The notes beneath the pieces are model-generated. The model had not been told where the DNA came from, did no database searches, and worked only from the letters and a program-made list of their open reading frames with translations. DNA of 18,913 nucleotides from Deinococcales bacterium (GTDB lineage: Bacteria > Deinococcota > Deinococci > Deinococcales > JAAFIG01): assembly GCA_031414595.1 (NCBI GenBank), contig JANNVX010000085.1:1-18913 (forward strand), given 5' to 3'. Positions 4,296 to 18,621 of this stretch are shown here, one piece after another. Within the stretch, counting starts at the first letter, position 1, and each line of letters begins with the position of its first letter. The position numbers and the translations under genes were made by a program.

Positions 4296-4372
4296 GCGCC
4301 CGTAGCTCAGTCGGATAGAGCGTTGCCCTCCGGAGGCAAAGGTCAGAGGTTCGAATCCCCTCGGGCGCACCA
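4296..4372 (+). tRNA. tRNA-Arg (anticodon CCG)
   Basis: Acceptor stem GCGCCCG/CGGGCGC, D arm GCTC..GAGC, anticodon stem TTGCC/GGCAA with loop CTCCGGA, T loop TTCGAAT, encoded CCA; 77 nt. Confidence 0.97.
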
Positions 4373-4484: not shown

Positions 4485-5450
4485 TCACTGGTTCATTAAG
4501 GTTTCTATCTCGAGCATAACATCTGTCGGCAATGCCCCAAACTGCATTGCCGACACGTTTTCTTCGACTTGAGAAACAGTCTTAAAACCTGGAATTGGCA
4601 CAAGGCTAGGGTGAAACGCCCAAAGCCACGCCAAAGCACCTTGGGCTAAAGTCCTGCCGCCTGTGCAGAGTAATTCTTTAATCTTCTCGAGTTGCCCTAG
4701 TTGCGCTGCTTGTTTGCCAGTCTCCAGATTCCATTTGAAACGGGTTCGCATGTCGTTGGCTGCAAACTGATGCCCCGCTTGGAGTTGACCAGTTAGTAAG
4801 CCCATACCCAGTGGTCGGCGCACCACCACCCCTAAATTGAGGTCGGCACATAGGTCGGGTAGTTCTCGGTTGCCCTCGAGAACATTCAGCAGTATGGGTA
4901 CAACACCAGCTTGGGTATCTCGAGCAAAAGCGCTTAAGGTTTCGGGTTGTTCATTGCACCAAGAATACGTACCAATCAGACCTTCTTGTACCAAGTCATC
5001 CAAAGTCCCAGCCACTTCGAGGGCTTCTATAAGCGGCAGGTCAAACAAATGCAGTTGGTAAATGTCTATTTTTTCGCGTTTTAGGCGTTTTAGGCTCTGC
5101 TCGAGGGCGTACCGGATTCCTGTTGGGGTGATGTCTGTCCCTGTGACTTCGGGGGGGTCGTCGGTAAACGTATAGCCAAATTTGGCAGCAATCATCACCT
5201 CGGCTCGAGTTTCATGCAGCACTTGCCCAAGCAGGGTTTCGGCATGACCACAACCGTAGACACCAGCCACATCAAAGAACCGAATTCCCAATTCGAGGGC
5301 GCGGTATAAGGCACGAATGGATTCGGCATCATCCACATCGCCGTAGCCCATGTAGCCGCCTCTATCCCAGAATGCCCCACCAATAGCCCAGCAGCCGAAG
5401 CCCATTGCCCCAACATCCAAGCCAGAACGCCCCAGCCCTCGAGATTTCAT
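4485..5450 (-). CDS. Aldo/keto reductase
   Basis: GFGCWAIGG, FDVAGVYG.G.AE, AKFG, SLKRL..EKIDIYQLH and PIPG motifs. Has its own leaderless -10 (TAAACT, 6 nt before ATG). Confidence 0.95.
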   Translation of the reverse strand: MKSRGLGRSGLDVGAMGFGCWAIGGAFWDRGGYMGYGDVDDAESIRALYRALELGIRFFDVAGVYGCGHAETLLGQVLHETRAEVMIAAKFGYTFTDDPPEVTGTDITPTGIRYALEQSLKRLKREKIDIYQLHLFDLPLIEALEVAGTLDDLVQEGLIGTYSWCNEQPETLSAFARDTQAGVVPILLNVLEGNRELPDLCADLNLGVVVRRPLGMGLLTGQLQAGHQFAANDMRTRFKWNLETGKQAAQLGQLEKIKELLCTGGRTLAQGALAWLWAFHPSLVPIPGFKTVSQVEENVSAMQFGALPTDVMLEIETLMNQ

Positions 5451-5459
5451 GGATTTAGT

Positions 5460-6245
5460 TTACTGTGATTTTCTTGCTTGTAAACCTTTCAAACGCTTTA
5501 TTTGCCAAGCATAATAAAGTTGAACCAACCGCGACTGACTCTGCGCCAACCGATACTGCATTTGATCGATGCTCGAGAATTGCGTGGGTAATGGCACGGA
5601 TTGAAGTAAACCCGCTTCTTGGGCTGACAAAAGCAGTTCATGTAGTCGTTTGCGTAATCCAAATGGCTGTGCAATTGCAAAAAAAGCCTGCCAATCAAAA
5701 ACACTTTGCAATTCGGGCATAGCTCGAGCCAACCAAACCATGTCGTTGCGGCTGTACTCGAGTCGGTGTAAGACGGGTTCTGGGCAACTTTGGGCAAAGA
5801 CTCGAATGGAATCTTTGAAAGTCACCCAGCCACGTATTTGCCAGTGCAGTAAGTATTTTTGCTTGGACATTAACCACTTATTGCTTGGGATGGCTCTGAG
5901 CAATGAACTGATGTTCTGTACGGCAAAATCCGAGGTGGCACTGATATTGAGTTTAGCATCATCAAGCAGTTGATAAGCGATACCGTGTTGCTCGAGGTTT
6001 CGCTGCCATTGTTCCTGATTAAAAATTCGTTGTTGTTGCAAAACCCAAGCCTGTTTGTAGATGCCTCTCAGACGTGGGGTCAGTTCATCTTGAAAGGCTG
6101 ATAAATTTTGATACAAGTGCGGCAATAAATCAAATTCGCTGCTGCTTAGCTGCTCAAAGTTGGTTTGTAATTTCCAGTGCTGATAGGCTTCAAGGGCTGC
6201 TTCTGGCTCACAACAACAGGCTTGCAGCAACAAGGTGGTTCTCAA
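5460..6245 (-). CDS. Nucleotidyltransferase-family protein (NTP_transf_5-like), catalytic motifs degenerate
   Basis: N-terminal LLLQA...ALEAY..W...LLP.LY.NL...RLRGIY...W pattern recognised from this family, plus LHW. TTG start overlaps the upstream TGA. Confidence 0.6.
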   Translation of the reverse strand: MRTTLLLQACCCEPEAALEAYQHWKLQTNFEQLSSSEFDLLPHLYQNLSAFQDELTPRLRGIYKQAWVLQQQRIFNQEQWQRNLEQHGIAYQLLDDAKLNISATSDFAVQNISSLLRAIPSNKWLMSKQKYLLHWQIRGWVTFKDSIRVFAQSCPEPVLHRLEYSRNDMVWLARAMPELQSVFDWQAFFAIAQPFGLRKRLHELLLSAQEAGLLQSVPLPTQFSSIDQMQYRLAQSQSRLVQLYYAWQIKRLKGLQARKSQ

Positions 6246-6913
6246 ATTGCCCTCGAGCGTTTCTCAAGTAACAATTGACGCAGCATCTGAAAATACCCGC
6301 TCTGTACTTGGTCTTTTTGGATACGGGTCATGTTCGATTGGTGAATTCGTCTTTTAACCAAGCACTGATTAAGCATCTGCACAGCAATCCCAAGTTGTTG
6401 GACTCGAGCCAGCCACAACATGGTGTCACCACTGTGCAAAAGTGGAAATAATCCCGCCAAATCAAAGACTATTCTCCGCGCCATCAGTGCCGAGGTACTG
6501 GGCAGTAATTGTGCTTCAGGTATAAACAGAACTTGGTTTTCTACTTCTGGGGTGTCCAGACTGATAAATTGCTCAATCGCCGTAAAAACCACACCAAGCA
6601 AAGGGTCTTGGGCAAAAGTCTGGAGTTGCATCTCGAGTTTTTCAGGCAACCAAAGGTCATCTTGGTCAAGAAGTGCAATATAATCACCCCGAGCCAAAGT
6701 AACGCCAGTATTACGAGCCGCCGCCGCTCCTTGATGTGTACAGATTTCAAGATGCACAGGGTAAGCTCGAGCCACCTGTGCAGTGTTATCAGTGCTTCCA
6801 TCATCAATCACAATCACCTCAAAAGGCTGCACCGTTTGGGCGAAAACACTATCTAAGGCTGCCCCAAGGTAACGCTCACCGTTCCAAGTTGGGATGATGA
6901 CACTGACATTCAT
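6242..6913 (-). CDS. Glycosyltransferase family 2
   Basis: VSVIIPTWN, VIDDGSTD, ARNTG and LLDQDD motifs. Start MNVSV at 6913 gives an ATGA overlap with the upstream gene. Confidence 0.93.
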   Translation of the reverse strand: MNVSVIIPTWNGERYLGAALDSVFAQTVQPFEVIVIDDGSTDNTAQVARAYPVHLEICTHQGAAAARNTGVTLARGDYIALLDQDDLWLPEKLEMQLQTFAQDPLLGVVFTAIEQFISLDTPEVENQVLFIPEAQLLPSTSALMARRIVFDLAGLFPLLHSGDTMLWLARVQQLGIAVQMLNQCLVKRRIHQSNMTRIQKDQVQSGYFQMLRQLLLEKRSRAI

Positions 6914-7575
6914 GCTTGTCTTCGCCTTGCGAGGTTTAGTTGTAGCACCCAAAGCAATTCTCGAGTGCTGAGTTTTGCCTCATGACCTTGGTTTTGCCGA
7001 TGAATTCGTTTGGTTAAAAGCACTTGTTCTGGGTATGCGAAACGCAATTGGTGGAAATTAGCTCGAGCAAACCAATCCACATCGGAATTGCTAATAAAAC
7101 TGGTATTGAACAGACCCACTTGTTGAAAAACTGTTTTTCGGACCAATAAAGCACTAGGCAAAAAAGCAGCAGCGCCCTCTAAGTAGCCTTGACGAATCAA
7201 ATGCCCAAAAGCCTGTGCATCGGATTCAAGTTGTGCAATCGTTTTACAAATTGCATAATCAGCATTTTTTAAGCTCTCGAGTTGTAACACCAATTTATCT
7301 GGATGCCATAAGTCATCTTGGTCAAGAAAAGCAATAAATTCTGCACCGGCATGAGCTATTCCCGAGTTTCGAGCAGCCCCAGGACCTTGATTCGTTTGGC
7401 TTAGAATTATCTTGGTATAGGCTTTGGCGATTTCTAGGCTTTGGTCGCTCGAGCCATCATCCACAACCACTAGCTCAATTGACACCTCAGTCTGAATTAA
7501 GGCACTTTCCAGAGTTTGGGCGAGGTACTTCTCACCGTTATAGACGGGAACAATCACACTTATTTGTGGTTTCAT
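6910..7575 (-). CDS. Glycosyltransferase family 2
   Basis: ISVIVPVYN, VVDDGSSD, ARNSG and FLDQDD motifs; ATGA overlap. Confidence 0.93.
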   Translation of the reverse strand: MKPQISVIVPVYNGEKYLAQTLESALIQTEVSIELVVVDDGSSDQSLEIAKAYTKIILSQTNQGPGAARNSGIAHAGAEFIAFLDQDDLWHPDKLVLQLESLKNADYAICKTIAQLESDAQAFGHLIRQGYLEGAAAFLPSALLVRKTVFQQVGLFNTSFISNSDVDWFARANFHQLRFAYPEQVLLTKRIHRQNQGHEAKLSTRELLWVLQLNLARRRQA

Positions 7576-8273
7576 GGTCTTTCCTCGAGTATTGGTACTT
7601 CTGGCAGAGCAACCATTCGATTTTGTTGGCGTTTACTGCGTCTGTGAATGGCTTGTAGTAACCAATGGCGAACCGCATTTAGATCTGATGTGATGTTTGT
7701 GTCGTGTAAACGATAGCCCAGTAAAATTTGTGGAAGCGTCACAAAACCAGATGATTGTTCACGCAGTCGTAAAAACCAATCAAAGTCTTCGCTTTGGGTC
7801 ATGGTCACATCAAAAACACCAATTTGATCAAACACTTCACGCCGCACCAAAGCAGCCCCAGTCGCAGGTAGAAAGGTTTTTATGATGCTGGGTTGACGGT
7901 TTGATAGCATAAAAAATTGTTCAACAAAACCTGTGACTACCCTAATTTCAGGATGTTTTTGCAGAACCTTGATTTGCAAATCAAGTTTATTTTGTACCCA
8001 CAGGTCATCGGCATCTAAAAAAGCAATCAGTTGACCTCGAGCCGCCGCCAGACCTCGGTTGCGAGCGGCGGCAATTCCAGTGTTTTTGGCTTGCTTAAAC
8101 ACAATTGCGCCCATTTGCTTAGCAATTTCGGCACTGTTGTCAGTGCTGCCATCATCTATCACCAGAATCTCGAGATTGGGGTAATTTTGGGCATGAATGC
8201 TGGCGATTGCCTCGGCAATAAAACGCTGCCCATTAAGGACTGGCATAATTACACTAATAAACGGTTGGTTCAT
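7572..8273 (-). CDS. Glycosyltransferase family 2
   Basis: ISVIMPVLN, VIDDGSTD, ARNRG, FLDADD and SEDFDW motifs; ATGA overlap. Confidence 0.94.
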   Translation of the reverse strand: MNQPFISVIMPVLNGQRFIAEAIASIHAQNYPNLEILVIDDGSTDNSAEIAKQMGAIVFKQAKNTGIAAARNRGLAAARGQLIAFLDADDLWVQNKLDLQIKVLQKHPEIRVVTGFVEQFFMLSNRQPSIIKTFLPATGAALVRREVFDQIGVFDVTMTQSEDFDWFLRLREQSSGFVTLPQILLGYRLHDTNITSDLNAVRHWLLQAIHRRSKRQQNRMVALPEVPILEERP

Positions 8274-9193
8274 ACTTGCTCGAGAAAAGATTTTATCGCA
8301 GGCGCAACAGCTTTTGGCGTATCACCAAGGTACAAGCGGTAACACGGCACGGTTCGGAGCAATTGGCTCATCTGGGCGAAACCTATCTGGCTGCTTCGCA
8401 ATTGAAACAGGCTATTGGGCGCAAGGGCTAATAATGCGGTTTGAGGATGCACTGCTTCAAAACCAAGCTGCCCGCCCAATGTCGGTAACAACACGGCTCG
8501 AATCGGGGCTTCTAGCACCAATTGTGGCGCGTGGGTTTTAGAGAGCATCACAAAGGCTTTCTCGAGGTCTGGGTTTTTGCGTGGCTTTAGAAAATTTAGC
8601 CGTGCTGCATTGTCAAAATGAAACTTCGCACTCGAGTATAAACTATAAACCATTGGTTCTGACTCGAGGGAAACAGCGCAGTAATCGTCACCCAGAAAAT
8701 CTAGTCCAGCTTGTAGTGCCAGCAGTGCAGTGGTGCTTTTTCCACTGCCGCCCCGCCCAATCAGCAATGCCGAGGCGTGTTTTGTGGCAATCGCTGCCGC
8801 GTGCAGCACGGTGATGGATTTCTTCTCGAGCCATGCCCTAAGAATCTGCACAAAAGGCGCACACTGCTGATAGGTTAGCAACGGAAAATTTGTTTGACAC
8901 AAAGCAAAATCAGCGCTTAGGAATTGCAACATGTCTTGATTATACGGGTCTAGGTAAAGCACACCATCCGAACCAATATCCTCGAGTTTTGGTAAATCGG
9001 TGCGAATGTCAATGGTTAAATCGGGCAGACCAGCAAAGGTTGGTAAGTGTAAAAAGGCTTCTGTGCTTTGTTCTAGCAGTTCTGGTACGCCAATCAGACG
9101 AATTTTTTGGTTAGCAAGCATCAAGTCTCGAGCCTGAGCTTCTTTTGGGCGCGTACCTATAACTCGCTGGATAAAAGCTGAGGCTTGGGTCAT
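8270..9193 (-). CDS. HPr kinase-related P-loop serine kinase (lasso-cluster PadeK-like)
   Basis: LHAAA...LLIGRGGSGKSTT (Walker A)...FLGDD, the His / P-loop / DD arrangement of HprK-family kinases. Confidence 0.85.
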   Translation of the reverse strand: MTQASAFIQRVIGTRPKEAQARDLMLANQKIRLIGVPELLEQSTEAFLHLPTFAGLPDLTIDIRTDLPKLEDIGSDGVLYLDPYNQDMLQFLSADFALCQTNFPLLTYQQCAPFVQILRAWLEKKSITVLHAAAIATKHASALLIGRGGSGKSTTALLALQAGLDFLGDDYCAVSLESEPMVYSLYSSAKFHFDNAARLNFLKPRKNPDLEKAFVMLSKTHAPQLVLEAPIRAVLLPTLGGQLGFEAVHPQTALLALAPNSLFQLRSSQIGFAQMSQLLRTVPCYRLYLGDTPKAVAPAIKSFLEQV

Positions 9194-9600
9194 ACTTTTT
9201 TACTTGTGACGGGCCAGCCTCGACTGGGTTCAACTTCGTGGATTGGGTCAAGCAGCAGTAACGCCTGCATATCATCAAATAACTCGAGTTCAGGTTTTTG
9301 CAGGGTCTGGCTTAGACTCGGCAACTCAATTTCTATTGTTTCTTGCGAACTGACCCGAATCAGTTCTTTTTCTAAGAGTTGGGTAATGAATTCTGGAATC
9401 AGTTGGTCTGCATTTTCAAGCCGCGTTTCAAGCTGCCTAGCAATACTCGAGACCGAATGATGCGCCACCACCAAAGCCCAAATCAGGGCAGCACTACCAC
9501 GTAAACTAAAGTACAAACCATTCTTAAAATCAATCACCATGGCTTCGCCGTCAAGCACTTCGGCGGCAACTTGAGGGCTGTTTAACTCATAAAAACTCAT
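9190..9600 (-). CDS. PqqD-family / RiPP recognition element (RRE) protein with C-terminal leader/core-like extension (136 aa)
   Basis: Start MSFYEL at 9600, 1 nt after the upstream stop. EVLDGEAMVIDFKNGLYFSL.GSAALIW...IARQL...FITQLLEKELI is the PqqD fold pattern. Tail LQKPELELFDDMQALLLLDPIHEVEPSRGWP. Confidence 0.85.
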   Translation of the reverse strand: MSFYELNSPQVAAEVLDGEAMVIDFKNGLYFSLRGSAALIWALVVAHHSVSSIARQLETRLENADQLIPEFITQLLEKELIRVSSQETIEIELPSLSQTLQKPELELFDDMQALLLLDPIHEVEPSRGWPVTSKKV

Positions 9601-9601
9601 G

Positions 9602-10384
9602 CTACATTCTAACCAAAAAAACGTTTTTAAGGTAATTTTTGACCCGACGACCTTGCCATAAAAGCCCACCAAACCAGTTTTTAGCTGCCAATGACACCGC
9701 ATCATCTTTGGGTTGAAAGCCAAGTAAAACCTTGGTTGCCTCAAGACCAAACGGATTATTTTGATTGTCGGATACCCCATGGATAATCGCAAAGTGCTGG
9801 TCGGTCTCGAGACATAAGCCTATCAACTGCACCAAATCGCGTTCGGTAAGACTGATTTTTAATTGCTGGTCATGGGGATGAAGACGAGCGTCGTTTTTAC
9901 TCAGTACCGCCCCAAGCCGAACACAAATCACCGATAAAGCCCGGTCATGACTATGCACCCGAGCGAGGGCTTCAGCAAAGGCTTTGCTTGCCCCGTAAAA
10001 ATTGGTTGGGTAGGGGGCATCAGTCTCGAGAATCGGTTGGTGCATATGCCCCCAGACCGCTTGAACACTGCTCATCAGAATCACACGGCGACACTTGGCG
10101 GCTCTGGCAGCCAGTAAAATATGTTGCACCCCAATAATGTTAGGTGCGACCTGCAATTGCCAATCAATGCCATAATCCAATACCCCCAAATGCAGCACCG
10201 TATCCACCCCTTGGCAAAGCTCGAGCAGCGCCTGATAATCCTCGAGTTGTGCCTTGGTAAACGGCGTAAGTGCTGTTTTTGGTTCTCGAGCATCGGTAAA
10301 TATTAACTCGTACTCAGTTTGCAAATATGGAATCAGTAACCCTGCTACTTTTCCGGCTGCTCCTGTAATCAGTACACGCTGCAT
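9602..10384 (-). CDS. NAD(P)-dependent epimerase/dehydratase (extended SDR, uronate-dehydrogenase-like)
   Basis: VLITGAAGKVA Rossmann motif, MSS, YGASK. The -10 TAGACT 7 nt upstream favours ATG 10384 over 10390. Confidence 0.9.
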   Translation of the reverse strand: MQRVLITGAAGKVAGLLIPYLQTEYELIFTDAREPKTALTPFTKAQLEDYQALLELCQGVDTVLHLGVLDYGIDWQLQVAPNIIGVQHILLAARAAKCRRVILMSSVQAVWGHMHQPILETDAPYPTNFYGASKAFAEALARVHSHDRALSVICVRLGAVLSKNDARLHPHDQQLKISLTERDLVQLIGLCLETDQHFAIIHGVSDNQNNPFGLEATKVLLGFQPKDDAVSLAAKNWFGGLLWQGRRVKNYLKNVFLVRM

Positions 10385-10607
10385 CGGCATGAGTCTACAA
10401 TTTTTGGGACAACCAAACCTTCAAGCCCTCGAGATTAGCAGTTTTGAAGGGTATTGATGTTTTTCTCGAGCAAATAGAAGGGCAGTTTATTCTGCTGCAC
10501 AAAGAGTATCAAGTCATAGTCCAAAAAAATAGTCCAGCAAGCATTTAAGCCTAAGATGTGAACCAACTTATCAAGTCTATGATAGGTTTGTAATCAGGAG
10601 AAAAATC

Positions 10608-11033
10608 GTGAAAAAGACTTTAATCATTGGCTTGGTGGCTCTAGGAATTGTATCTATTGGATTGGCGACACATACGGCTGGTAATATTTTTAATACTTCG
10701 GCTGAGGTCGTCACAGAAAGCACTGGCACATTCAAACAAGGCTTTGTTCATTTGTTTGTCGAAGAAGGCGATACAATTACCAATACTGTCGCCCTTGAAA
10801 TAGGCAAAGAATACACAATTGTGGCAATGGGTGATGATGAAATCCTGAGTGATATTGACTTGGTTGTGCGTGACAGCCGAGGTAAAATTTTAAGACAAGA
10901 TACCAAAACCAATTCTTCTCGAGCCGAAGTGACATTTATACCAACCACCAGATTTACTGAAATTGATGCAACTGCCAAGGAAATGCCATCTTCCAATGGG
11001 TATGGTTCAATCCTAATTTTTGAACAAGAATAA
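10608..11033 (+). CDS. Secreted beta-sandwich protein, pre-peptidase C-terminal (PPC)-like domain
   Basis: SD AGGAG; signal peptide MKKTLIIGLVALGIVSIGLA; G.EYTIVA.GD...DIDL.V.D..G..L..D pattern. Confidence 0.7.
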   Translation: MKKTLIIGLVALGIVSIGLATHTAGNIFNTSAEVVTESTGTFKQGFVHLFVEEGDTITNTVALEIGKEYTIVAMGDDEILSDIDLVVRDSRGKILRQDTKTNSSRAEVTFIPTTRFTEIDATAKEMPSSNGYGSILIFEQE

Positions 11034-11037
11034 ATGA

Positions 11038-11073
11038 GAAGGCTCGAGGGTAAGCAACCCTCGAGCCTTTTTT
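11038..11073. terminator. Terminator between convergent genes (probably bidirectional)
   Basis: AAGGCTCGAGGGT / ACCCTCGAGCCTT stem followed by a T-run on +. Each arm contains CTCGAG. Confidence 0.85.
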
Positions 11074-15125: not shown

Positions 15126-15647
15126 ATGCAAAAACCAATTGTTTGTATACAAACCGAACTCGGTATCATTCGGGTAGAACTCGAGACCGAAAAAGCCAAT
15201 TTAACGGCTCAAAATTTCTTAGGCTATGTGACCCGAGGCGATTTTAACAACAGTTACTTTTATCGTGTAGTTCACGAGAAAAATCAAGACCATCAGCCCA
15301 TCAAAATAGCAGTTATCCAAGGCGGGCTAGGGATGAACACCGATCCCAAAAAAGGCGCAACTATTGCCCACCAAACCACCCTCGAGACGGGCTTAAAACA
15401 TGTCAACGGTACAATTTCAATGAGTCGGCTCGAGCCGGGCAGCGCCCACTCCGAATTCTTTATTTGTATTGGCGACCAACCCGAACTTGATTACGGTGGC
15501 AAACGCAACCCCGACGGACAAGGGTTTGCGGCGTTTGGGCAAGCAATAGAAGGATTTGAGGTGATTCTCGAGATTCAAAAGCAACCAGAAAATGGGCAAA
15601 TGTTGCTTGCGCCCGTCAAAATTTACAGCATCAGTCTCGAGCAATAA
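15126..15647 (+). CDS. Cyclophilin-type peptidyl-prolyl cis-trans isomerase
   Basis: TELG.I.VEL...A..TAQNFL.Y, FYRVV, VIQGG, H..GTISM.R...SA.SEFFI, AAFGQ..EG motifs. Start MQKPIV follows extended -10 TGcTAGAAT by 7 nt. Confidence 0.93.
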   Translation: MQKPIVCIQTELGIIRVELETEKANLTAQNFLGYVTRGDFNNSYFYRVVHEKNQDHQPIKIAVIQGGLGMNTDPKKGATIAHQTTLETGLKHVNGTISMSRLEPGSAHSEFFICIGDQPELDYGGKRNPDGQGFAAFGQAIEGFEVILEIQKQPENGQMLLAPVKIYSISLEQ

Positions 15648-15687
15648 AGACTTCAAAAACACATCAAAACATGGCACAATAGCAACC

Positions 15688-15906
15688 ATGAGTATTCTCG
15701 AACTGCAATACCAAGTTGAAAAGTTACCTGTGCAAGAACGGGTCGCTTTAATGCAGCATATTCAACACACACTCACCACAAAAGAACTAGAAACCTACTG
15801 GGTCAACGAAGCTGAACGAGTGATTGACTTGGTAGATAGTGATCAAATGCCAACATTCACCTCTGATGAATTAAGGAAACGGCGTGCCGAACGAATTACT
15901 TCATGA
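15688..15906 (+). CDS. Addiction-module antitoxin (TIGR02574/PF09720-like), 72 aa
   Basis: LP..ER..L......L......W..EAER pattern; directly upstream of and overlapping a ParE-like gene. Confidence 0.8.
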   Translation: MSILELQYQVEKLPVQERVALMQHIQHTLTTKELETYWVNEAERVIDLVDSDQMPTFTSDELRKRRAERITS

Positions 15907-16198
15907 AATTTACTCCGAACTGGCAATCGAGAAAATTCTTGAAATTGAATGGCATTTAGAAGCCCAAAATCCAGACCGCGCCGCAGCTTTTCGCCAAGAA
16001 CTCGAGGAGTTAATTAGTCAGCTTCTAACATTTCCCGAATCAGCACCAATTGTAGGGTATCGAAAAAGAGTCCGACGGCGCTTATTCAAACGATTTCCAT
16101 ACGGTTTATTGTACGTCGTTCGAGACGAGTTTTTGCTTATTACCCTGATTTACCCACTTGGACAAAGTACACCTTTTTGGGATGATTACATTCAATGA
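15884..16198 (+). CDS. RelE/ParE-family type II toxin
   Basis: A..F..EL...I......PES......VRR.L.KRFPY.L.Y pattern; overlaps the antitoxin. Confidence 0.85.
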   Translation: MPNELLHEIYSELAIEKILEIEWHLEAQNPDRAAAFRQELEELISQLLTFPESAPIVGYRKRVRRRLFKRFPYGLLYVVRDEFLLITLIYPLGQSTPFWDDYIQ

Positions 16199-17732: not shown

Positions 17733-18029
17733 ATGCGTATGACTTTTGAGACTCTAAAAGTTCTTAATATCTTTCTCGAGAACCTAGACGAACCACAGTA
17801 TGGACTCGAGATAACCAAAGCCACTGGCGTTCAAGCTGGCACGTTGTACCCTATTTTGATGCGGCTCGAGACCAATAAATGGCTCTCGAGTGACTGGGAA
17901 GATATTGACCCCGTAAAAGCAGGTAGACGACCACGCCGCTATTATACAATTACAGATTTAGGACAGCGTGAAGCATTAAAAGCGCAAAGAGAACTTTTGC
18001 AGCCGAAACTAGGAGTTATTCATGTCTGA
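17733..18029 (+). CDS. PadR-family transcriptional regulator
   Basis: YGLEI...GTLYPIL.RLE...WL.S.WE...GRRPRRYY.IT..G motif. Confidence 0.93.
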   Translation: MRMTFETLKVLNIFLENLDEPQYGLEITKATGVQAGTLYPILMRLETNKWLSSDWEDIDPVKAGRRPRRYYTITDLGQREALKAQRELLQPKLGVIHV

Positions 18030-18621
18030 ACTTTTAGCTTTTTTGCTTGGCTTACTTACCAATGAAGTAGGTGAGGTTGCACCTTGGTTAGCGAAACGCA
18101 TTATCCGTTTTTATGTTGGATTTTTGCCGAAGGAAAGCCAGTTACGCTACCGTGAAGAATTTTTTGCTGAAATTGAAAATGTGCCTGGAAGTCTAACAAA
18201 ACTGCTTTACACCTTAAAAATTTTAAGTACAGTAATAAGTCAAGTTCAGGCATTACAGTCCTCAGAATCCGATTCTAAAACTTCTGCACGTAATTCATCT
18301 CTTCAACTCCAAAGAGTTTTTATAATTGTCTGTACCATAGTCGTGAATGTGGCATTACATGGTTATGATTCATCTGAGCAGCGTTACACAACAAACATCA
18401 TGATTGTGGTTACCTTATTTATAAATTATCTGGTTGCAGCTTTGATGTGGAATTATGCAACTAGGGGAAAGTGGAAAGAAATTCATTCCATCAGTACCGA
18501 GTTAGATTTAATTTCCACAAAGCTCGAAGCCGCAAAAGCAACACCTGAAGACTTGAAGTCCGTAAATGAACTGAAGGCACGATTAATTGAAGTCCGAAAA
18601 TCGTACAAGTTCCGATTTTAA
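18022..18621 (+). CDS. PadR-associated membrane protein (soluble N-terminal domain, two TM helices)
   Basis: SD AGGAG; overlaps padR. PWLA.RII......LP.....RY.EE..AE N-terminal motif and two hydrophobic segments. Confidence 0.75.
   Translation: MSELLAFLLGLLTNEVGEVAPWLAKRIIRFYVGFLPKESQLRYREEFFAEIENVPGSLTKLLYTLKILSTVISQVQALQSSESDSKTSARNSSLQLQRVFIIVCTIVVNVALHGYDSSEQRYTTNIMIVVTLFINYLVAALMWNYATRGKWKEIHSISTELDLISTKLEAAKATPEDLKSVNELKARLIEVRKSYKFRF

Follow-up and report, generated by a model that had tools for sequence, protein, structure and literature searches.

The stretch analysed here (the window; 18,913 nucleotides, positions 1 to 18,913 of contig JANNVX010000085.1 from the Deinococcales assembly GCA_031414595.1, a Deinococcota metagenome-assembled genome that is 94% complete) carries a seven-gene operon whose second gene encodes a RiPP recognition element (RRE; RiPP, ribosomally synthesised and post-translationally modified peptide) joined to a leader-like motif and a conserved tail of its own. 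The fused leader and tail is the defining feature of a cassette of RRE, HprK-like kinase and glycosyltransferase genes that is real, widespread and apparently uncharacterised in bacteria, and that breaks the RiPP rule by which an RRE binds a separate precursor. An initial annotation of the window had proposed a phospho-glycopeptide RiPP system lacking a precursor gene; no free open reading frame (ORF) is indeed credible as a precursor, but a precursor-like sequence does exist, fused to the RRE, and had been overlooked. The reading that we favour, though with less than even confidence, is that the 136-residue protein stays uncleaved and, as a tethered acceptor or carrier, takes up first phosphate and later sugars, giving a protein-bound or protein-relayed phospho-glycan and no released peptide.

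The RRE protein (136 aa; 9190..9600, on the minus strand like the rest of the operon) begins with a PqqD/RRE domain (residues 1–84; 9349..9600) that passes the Pfam cut-off for PF05402 (27.6 against 23.4 bits). Its fold is nearest to the B1 proteins of lasso peptide pathways: the best Foldseek matches are TbiB1 (5v1v/5v1u) and TfuB1 (6jx3), profile searches matched 5v1u, 9x90, 6jx3 and 9x8z, and the closest structures are those of TbiB1, TfuB1, PbaB1 and LppB. By structure it is a lasso-type (B1) RRE, with scores below the NCBIfam lasso_PqqD cut-offs. A 50-aa extension follows, in which a variable linker leads to the leader motif (residues 100–108; 9277..9303) and then to the tail (residues 109–130; 9211..9276). 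The motif, of lasso type with the consensus FxxPxL, reads [FY]xxPxLxx[YF] in the family, with Leu at its first position in the window, and the full pattern of motif and tail was matched in 137 of 162 RRE homologues. An alignment of 136 rows (the window protein and 135 of the 162 homologues, once fusions, long forms and near-duplicates had been dropped) has P103 in 133 rows and L105 in 109.

AlphaFold2 predicts the motif with a predicted local distance difference test (pLDDT) value of 94 at residues 101–110 and a strand at 105–108. Three of the four strongest pairs by mutual information with average product correction (78–107, 34–106 and 67–100) link the RRE to the fused motif. At the last of these, Asp67 accompanies Tyr100 in 12 of 31 rows as against 1 of 92 with Phe100 (Fisher p 1e-7, uncorrected for kinship), and seven homologues combine Leu100 with Leu67. 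Positions 67 and 34 align with D70 and N33 of LppB, the RRE of the linear polyphosphorylated peptide (LPP) system, in whose crystal structure D70 hydrogen-bonds the leader Tyr, and D70 and N33 together hold the leader Tyr and Pro (PMC13381572). The fused motif thus co-varies with residues that grip the leader in solved structures, and we infer, with good support, that it occupies the cleft of its own RRE, either in cis or by domain swap. Tandem proteins with two and three RREs (P0016–P0025, P0039 and P0063), some of them fused to the kinase, carry a separate leader mimic for each RRE.

The tail, of the form DMQxLLLLDPIHEVxxxGWP, is a candidate tethered acceptor or kinase-docking element and is more conserved than the domain that precedes it (mean conservation 0.78 against 0.47 in the 136-row alignment). 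D110, D118 and W129 are found in all 136 rows and P119, H121, G128 and P130 in 134, and the tail typically ends 2–14 residues before the C-terminus. D118 lies at +18 from the leader aromatic or anchor residue in 147 of the 162 proteins, the other 15 being unmatched. The phospho-Ser acceptor of LppA is also at +18 from the leader aromatic (Y-16 to S3; PMC13381572) and the acceptor Ser of BsfA is at +19 (PMC10368454); in 12 free precursor-like peptides of the same genome as the window, a Ser is found at +18 (nine peptides) or +17 (three). From this spacing the tail looks like a precursor in which the acceptor Ser has turned into an invariant Asp. LppK adds phosphate onto phosphate, placing one to four phosphates on a single Ser (PMC13381572), and for a kinase family that phosphorylates a phosphate an acid acceptor would be chemically within reach. 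A search with residues 95–136 among proteins of 30–73 aa, which required three exact 5-mers and so had limited sensitivity, gave no candidate for a free-standing tail peptide.

The gene that follows encodes a P-loop kinase (8270..9193). The name of HprK kinase that it had been given holds only in part: the catalytic motif (H-GxxGxGKS-DD; H131, Walker A G146–S153 and D169–D170) is intact and is the one needed by BsfK (PMC10368454), but the match to HprK_rel_A (E 5e-9) is far below the cut-off, as befits a remote relative of HprK. This kinase accompanies the tailed RRE in all 45 tailed clusters that have downstream sequence, lying directly next to it in 43. The two also occur in nature as single chains of ~780–850 aa, in which three RRE-plus-leader units are joined to the kinase (P0023/24/25/39/63); the full tail is internal in these fusions, after the first unit, and every RRE repeat keeps its own leader mimic even where its tail has decayed. 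L092 holds a related RRE–kinase fusion.

A model of the complex between the RRE protein and the kinase scored 0.79, against 0.00 for the best control, and passes a mark reached by 116 of 157 solved pairs and by 2 of 215 mismatched pairs. At least 79% of contacts are common to the runs, and the partners have a pLDDT of 79 or more. In the model the RRE sheet packs on kinase helices 249–280, where L254, A258, P259 and Q264 are conserved, and tail residues 108, 110–111, 114–115 and 128–130 touch a kinase surface that includes R147 of the P-loop. A sequence search found no solved RRE–kinase complex. Binding of the RRE to the neighbouring kinase is thus supported at the level of a structural prediction.

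To place the operon in context, the window and 88 further loci were examined (62 RRE clusters at 70% identity, 50 of them tailed). The set is biased towards DMQA tails, since the A2 alignment was too diverse for the locus scan and the A1 alignment was used. Downstream genes were counted in 25 non-redundant loci with at least 3 kb of downstream sequence: family 2 glycosyltransferases (GT2) were found in 24, a nucleotidyltransferase (NTase) in 16, a family 4 glycosyltransferase (GT4) in 10, an MsbA-type ATP-binding cassette (ABC) exporter in 7, a short-chain dehydrogenase/reductase (SDR) in 4 and an aldo-keto reductase (AKR) in 1. With two queries each, neither a lasso cyclase nor a B2 protease was found in any of the 25; the cyclase query did match a locus with an untailed RRE (L125). 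In line with the initial annotation, the RRE–kinase–GT2(–NTase) synteny is therefore conserved without cyclase or B2. When 67 more neighbours were scanned with Pfam (63 of 142 listed unannotated ORFs and four from L045), Asn_synthase, Transglut_core3 and Peptidase_S26 were not found; the matches did include a single radical SAM/SPASM protein, a single Wzx flippase, two PMT_2 proteins and two unrelated peptidases, and GT-D-like proteins occur among the neighbours in single loci. One phmmer query each for a priming phosphoglycosyl transferase (PGT) and for Wzx had no match in the loci, the window included.

After clustering at 50% identity, homologues are represented by 118 sequences at E ≤ 1e-30; with the limit relaxed to E ≤ 1e-10 the figure is 3227, in which untailed RREs are counted as well. 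Cassette records come from Deinococcota, Abditibacteriota, Chloroflexota, Bacteroidota and Acidobacteriota, and kinase relatives are also labelled Cyanobacteria, Planctomycetes and Gammaproteobacteria. Within the Deinococcota the cassette is patchy, with four full-length matches among 301 genomes; strong kinase matches were found in three of seven same-genus genomes and in none of the other 23 relatives. Two loci, L066 and L088, hold two cassettes each. In the second copy of L066 (7031–7504) an in-frame TAA interrupts the RRE immediately ahead of the leader motif, and the piece that bears the leader has no start codon; going by the reading frame, this copy would be either a pseudogene or a sequence error.

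How might such a cassette work? On the carrier reading, the RRE would have been fused to a peptide derived from its own precursor, so that the leader-like motif fills the cleft in cis or by domain swap. The loaded RRE would dock on the C-terminal helices of the co-translated kinase, with the tail pinned by residues 110–115 and 128–130 as the model predicts. The kinase would then phosphorylate the D118-P-I-H121 loop of the tethered tail to form an acyl-phosphate or a phospho-His, and the phosphorylated, uncleaved protein would prime or carry a glycan. An intact NTP_transf_5 enzyme could cap the phosphate with a sugar, much as PsmN hexosylates a phospho-peptide (PMC6993621), and the GT2 and GT4 enzymes would extend it; the SDR and AKR would be optional sugar redox additions. 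A bolder version, in which a lasso or LPP precursor fused to its RRE has become a recyclable carrier, activated at Asp (as acyl phosphate) or at His, on which a glycan is built in the cytoplasm without undecaprenyl phosphate, seems to us rather unlikely. Of what the initial annotation had proposed, a protein-borne acceptor for a glycan is plausible and a released product is unsupported: a released phospho-glycopeptide would need a protease, an exporter and a Ser/Thr acceptor, and none of these is conserved.

In the window the capping step would have to be supplied differently. The last gene of the operon (5460..6245; 261 aa), which had been taken for a nucleotidyltransferase, has no Pfam match and does not reach the NTP_transf_5 cut-off; its nearest relatives are nevertheless of that family (PF14907), with a BLAST match at E 4e-12 to an intact PF14907-type NTase and 26 of 30 ESM-Atlas matches in PF14907 clusters. 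Aligned with the intact PF14907 proteins of sister cassettes it is ~90 residues shorter and has LDD...V.NIS in place of KG...R..DxD, and PsmN has no activity when its DxD is doubly mutated (PMC6993621). The window protein is therefore probably catalytically degenerate, a pseudo-enzyme, so that a GT2 or an NTase acting in trans would have to initiate there. Of the 36 NTase-like ORFs in the loci, 25 have the motif. Some of the other 11 are fragments from contig edges or with broken frames, but longer ORFs such as L107, L109 and L115 lack it too.

Several observations weigh against a phosphorylated, sugar-bearing tail. The NTase is missing from 9 of the 25 loci, and the DxD pattern is absent in the window and several others. 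No conserved Ser or Thr was found after the leader in the RRE homologues; at position 109, 70 of 136 rows have Thr but the window has Asp, and 4 of 139 tails have no Ser or Thr at all. The characterised relatives, as described in the literature compared, phosphorylate Ser, and LppK refuses even Thr and Tyr (PMC13381572). If free precursors are aligned in the Pro-Ile register, their Ser matches L117 and not D118. Residues D118–H121 are not among the confident contacts of the complex model, and the passing score may itself reflect the two chains being halves of a natural fusion, since such halves tend to pass. The tail is disordered when the protein is predicted alone (pLDDT ~55 beyond residue 110), and in an AlphaFold2 prediction of the natural fusion, made from a 6-sequence alignment, pLDDT is below 50 at residues 125–153 and the full tail is unplaced. 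Finally, a kinship-aware test of the 67–100 coupling is borderline (11 against 3 among 25 independent pairs, p 0.057).

We regard a different role for the same protein as possible but doubtful: the self-liganded RRE might be a non-covalent activator of the kinase or a pseudo-substrate scaffold, the kinase and the GT2 enzymes acting on a sugar, glycan, lipid or other protein as a glycan-tailoring module. The Asp that sits in the Ser register would then mimic phosphoserine or block turnover on the tail. The confident interface, which is mainly the RRE sheet on the kinase helices, agrees with such a role, as do the RRE repeats of the fusions that keep a leader mimic where the tail has decayed, the weak match of the kinase to the small-molecule kinase FomB (E 0.009) and the neighbouring genes (GT4 in 10 and MsbA-type ABC in 7 of 25 loci and, in one locus or another, a Wzx flippase, PMT_2 or GT-D-like proteins). 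The same neighbourhoods, however, have no conserved polymerase, flippase or priming PGT (by one-query phmmer, with the one flippase among the 67 neighbours by Pfam), and docking alone would leave unexplained the invariance of D118-P-I-H121, a loop without confident kinase contact.

Cofactor RiPPs such as PqqA and MftA have highly conserved cores. That precedent, a leader resembling those of precursors and a tail usually 2–14 residues from the C-terminus would suit a true RiPP whose precursor is fused to the RRE, the tail being modified, then released by a protease, either housekeeping or acting in trans, and exported, with lasso formation in trans as the extreme form. The genome of the window also encodes, outside the cassette locus, two B2-like proteases and a cyclase-like gene, and a B2-like match was found elsewhere in 6 of 10 cassette genomes. 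We nonetheless think this improbable. Cyclase and B2 are absent from all 25 loci, Peptidase_S26 is absent from the 67 neighbours, the tail is internal in the kinase fusions, only 7 of 25 loci have an exporter and the operon of the window has none, and the lasso-like locus of the same genome has an RRE of its own. B2 and a cyclase-like gene are both lacking in one cassette genome that is 96% complete (G175); on this ground, and because NF033535 passed its cut-off in none of five genomes, a lasso made in trans was rejected.

The lasso-like locus just mentioned (C58:12927–16639; L002, L004) comprises a cyclase-like protein of 545 aa, a B2 protein of 118 aa, an RRE of 90 aa and an ABC exporter; a quick pattern scan found no convincing precursor there. 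The second B2-like protein is fused to an NTP_transf_5 domain with its DxD intact, and its gene ends a Wzx/Wzy-type polysaccharide locus (C46:21964–23292; L005).

Decay of the window copy, in a family that functions elsewhere, would account for its dead NTase (which carries a stop in the relative L043), the Leu at the leader anchor, a shortened kinase and the patchy presence in the genus. This is also quite improbable, since none of the seven frames is interrupted, L042 has the same gene order, as does L043 up to the end of its contig, relatives at 47–94% identity retain the kinase and tail motifs, and Leu100 recurs with a matching Leu67.

The least probable of the alternatives, and a very unlikely one, is that the kinase and GT2 enzymes tailor free precursors encoded elsewhere, such as the at least 12 leader-bearing peptides of type YxxPxL...G[IV]SLPIG (core G[IVL]S[LI]PI) that a pattern search found in the genome, where their Ser stands at +17 or +18. 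Against it, the cleft of the RRE is already occupied by the fused motif, and one of the peptides lies near a separate RRE and HprK-like pair (C75:68077–72776). Such peptides are present in all five same-genus genomes tested, and a search for the cassette kinase found none in two of these, G188 and G204, which makes the peptides unlikely substrates of the cassette; they were found in none of five distant cassette genomes, a weak negative. In the window's genome the family is spread over C75 and 11 other places. Near the cassettes themselves, 15 of 403 short intergenic ORFs fit a loose precursor pattern, and none was credible or recurrent between unrelated loci, in a comparison made without a shuffle control.

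Taken together, the cassette resembles by analogy the tailoring arm of the paeninodin/pseudomycoidin, Bsf and LPP pathways. The closest known system is LPP (lppA-K-B-S-D-N; Popov et al. 2026, PMC13381572); its clusters of RRE, HprK-like kinase and NTase lack a cyclase, and this part of what the initial annotation had offered as new was already published. Both systems have a lasso-type RRE as a discrete protein, an HprK-like kinase, an NTP transferase, a YxxPxL-type leader, glycan-gene neighbourhoods and an acceptor position at +18 from the leader aromatic, and neither has a cyclase. LPP differs in its free precursor with Ser3, its signal-peptidase-I protease, its MsbA exporter and its restriction to Bacillota, whereas the cassette has a precursor-like peptide fused behind the RRE, Asp at the Ser position, no protease, one to four GT2/GT4 genes and a spread over several phyla. 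No free precursor of the LPP type (YxxPxVLxHQxIxFETxxS, with its Ser acceptor) was credible among the 403 short intergenic ORFs, and the pair of NTP transferase and MsbA-like exporter is lacking in the window and incomplete across the family (NTase in 16 and ABC in 7 of 25 loci). Because cyclase, protease and free precursor are missing, the cassette falls outside both the lasso and the LPP family.

The pseudomycoidin/paeninodin clusters (psmK, psmN; PMC6993621) likewise couple an HprK-like kinase to hexosylation of the phosphate by a PF14907-type NTase, but need a cyclase and a C-terminal Ser, neither of which the cassette has, and the NTase of the window lacks the DxD that PsmN needs. In bsf of Bradymonas sediminis (BsfK, BsfB1; PMC10368454) an RRE stimulates an HprK-like kinase with the same motif, the acceptor being an internal Ser3; the free precursor, B2, cyclase and exporter of bsf are all absent from the cassette. 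HPr-rel-A/B cassettes (TIGR04352, TIGR04353, TIGR04355) also pair an uncharacterised HprK-related kinase with a PqqD-like protein, but the window proteins fall far below their cut-offs (35.6 against 200 bits for TIGR04352, and no match for TIGR04353). The searchable literature and a term search of the LPP supplement gave no description of a self-leadered RRE cassette, subscription papers and bioRxiv supplements lying beyond the search, and the words 'kinase' and 'HPr' are absent from the accessible part of the RRE-Finder paper (PMC7470986).

This large orphan cassette links the lasso and LPP kinases to glycan synthesis, a connection that Popov et al. left open: there LppN is inactive without a partner, the final product is unknown and the clusters lie in polysaccharide loci (PMC13381572). 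If the bolder version of the carrier reading is true, it would be a protein-primed glycan route with its origin in RiPP machinery, now found across many bacterial phyla. As acceptor and chaperone would be one small soluble protein, the question is testable with two genes and a mass spectrometer, and a natural self-leadered RRE would be of use for engineering leader-independent enzymes.

The remaining genes complete the operon, whose seven ORFs are all open on the minus strand and coupled as the initial annotation had described, by a 1-nt gap between SDR and RRE and by 4-nt overlaps at the next five junctions. Its identifications of the RRE, the SDR and the three GT2 proteins were borne out by Pfam cut-offs. 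The operon opens with an extended SDR (9602..10384; PF01370, E 5.5e-19), epimerase/Azf/uronate-dehydrogenase-like and accessory, for which the best NCBIfam match, Azf, is below cut-off. Its proposed place in the pathway is partly upheld: although an SDR is present in only 4 of 25 loci, an orthologue (40% identity) lies between RRE and kinase in an Acidobacteriota lineage (L049/L060), which makes it a recurrent accessory. The three GT2 enzymes are short: one of 233 aa and soluble type (7572..8273; PF00535, E 1.8e-33), one of 221 aa from its ATG (6910..7575; E 1.1e-31) and one of 223 aa from ATG 6913 (6242..6913; E 2.6e-33). Nine nt downstream of the operon is an eighth gene, an AKR (4485..5450, minus strand; PF00248), a neighbour and not a core member; L042, a close relative, likewise has an AKR after the cassette. 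As had been claimed, no Asn-synthase or B2 match was found in six frames of the window, and the 21 window ORFs compared with Pfam, a set without the two ABC permeases and the spurious ORFs, contained neither a radical SAM nor a YcaO family; the operon of the window also has no signal-peptidase-I-like leader peptidase and no exporter.

The single leaderless −10 box ascribed to the operon is one of three. A TANNNT box (10392..10397, minus strand), probably a leaderless promoter, lies 7 nt before the SDR ATG. A second, TAGAAT (9606..9611, minus strand), 5 nt before the RRE start, may be an internal leaderless promoter, judging from its sequence, and is kept in the relatives L042 (5 nt) and L043 (7 nt). 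The third (5457–5462, minus strand), 6 nt before the AKR start, suggests that the AKR probably has a promoter of its own. With boxes before RRE and AKR as well, a single operon promoter is not established. Across the genome the spacing from TANNNT to ATG peaks at 6 nt (342 of 2148 ATG genes, 15.9%, against a background of ~2%), with shoulders of 5.1% at 5 nt and 5.6% at 7 nt. Scans for sigma-70 promoters and terminators gave counts at shuffle level (9 against 8.1 and 10 against 9.0).

Elsewhere in the window, on the plus strand, are a DDE transposase fragment at the contig end (2–259), a tRNA-Arg(CCG) just beyond the AKR (4296–4372), a divergent gene for a secreted-looking protein of 141 aa without clear family (10608–11033) followed by a strong hairpin (11039–11069), a type II toxin–antitoxin pair (addiction-module component and ParE; 15592–16198), and a PadR regulator followed by a low-GC membrane protein without clear family (17733–18621). 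In the genome as a whole the palindrome CTCGAG is highly iterated: it occurs 23,235 times, about once every 190 bp, where base composition predicts ~970, and the hexamer next in frequency is a third as common.

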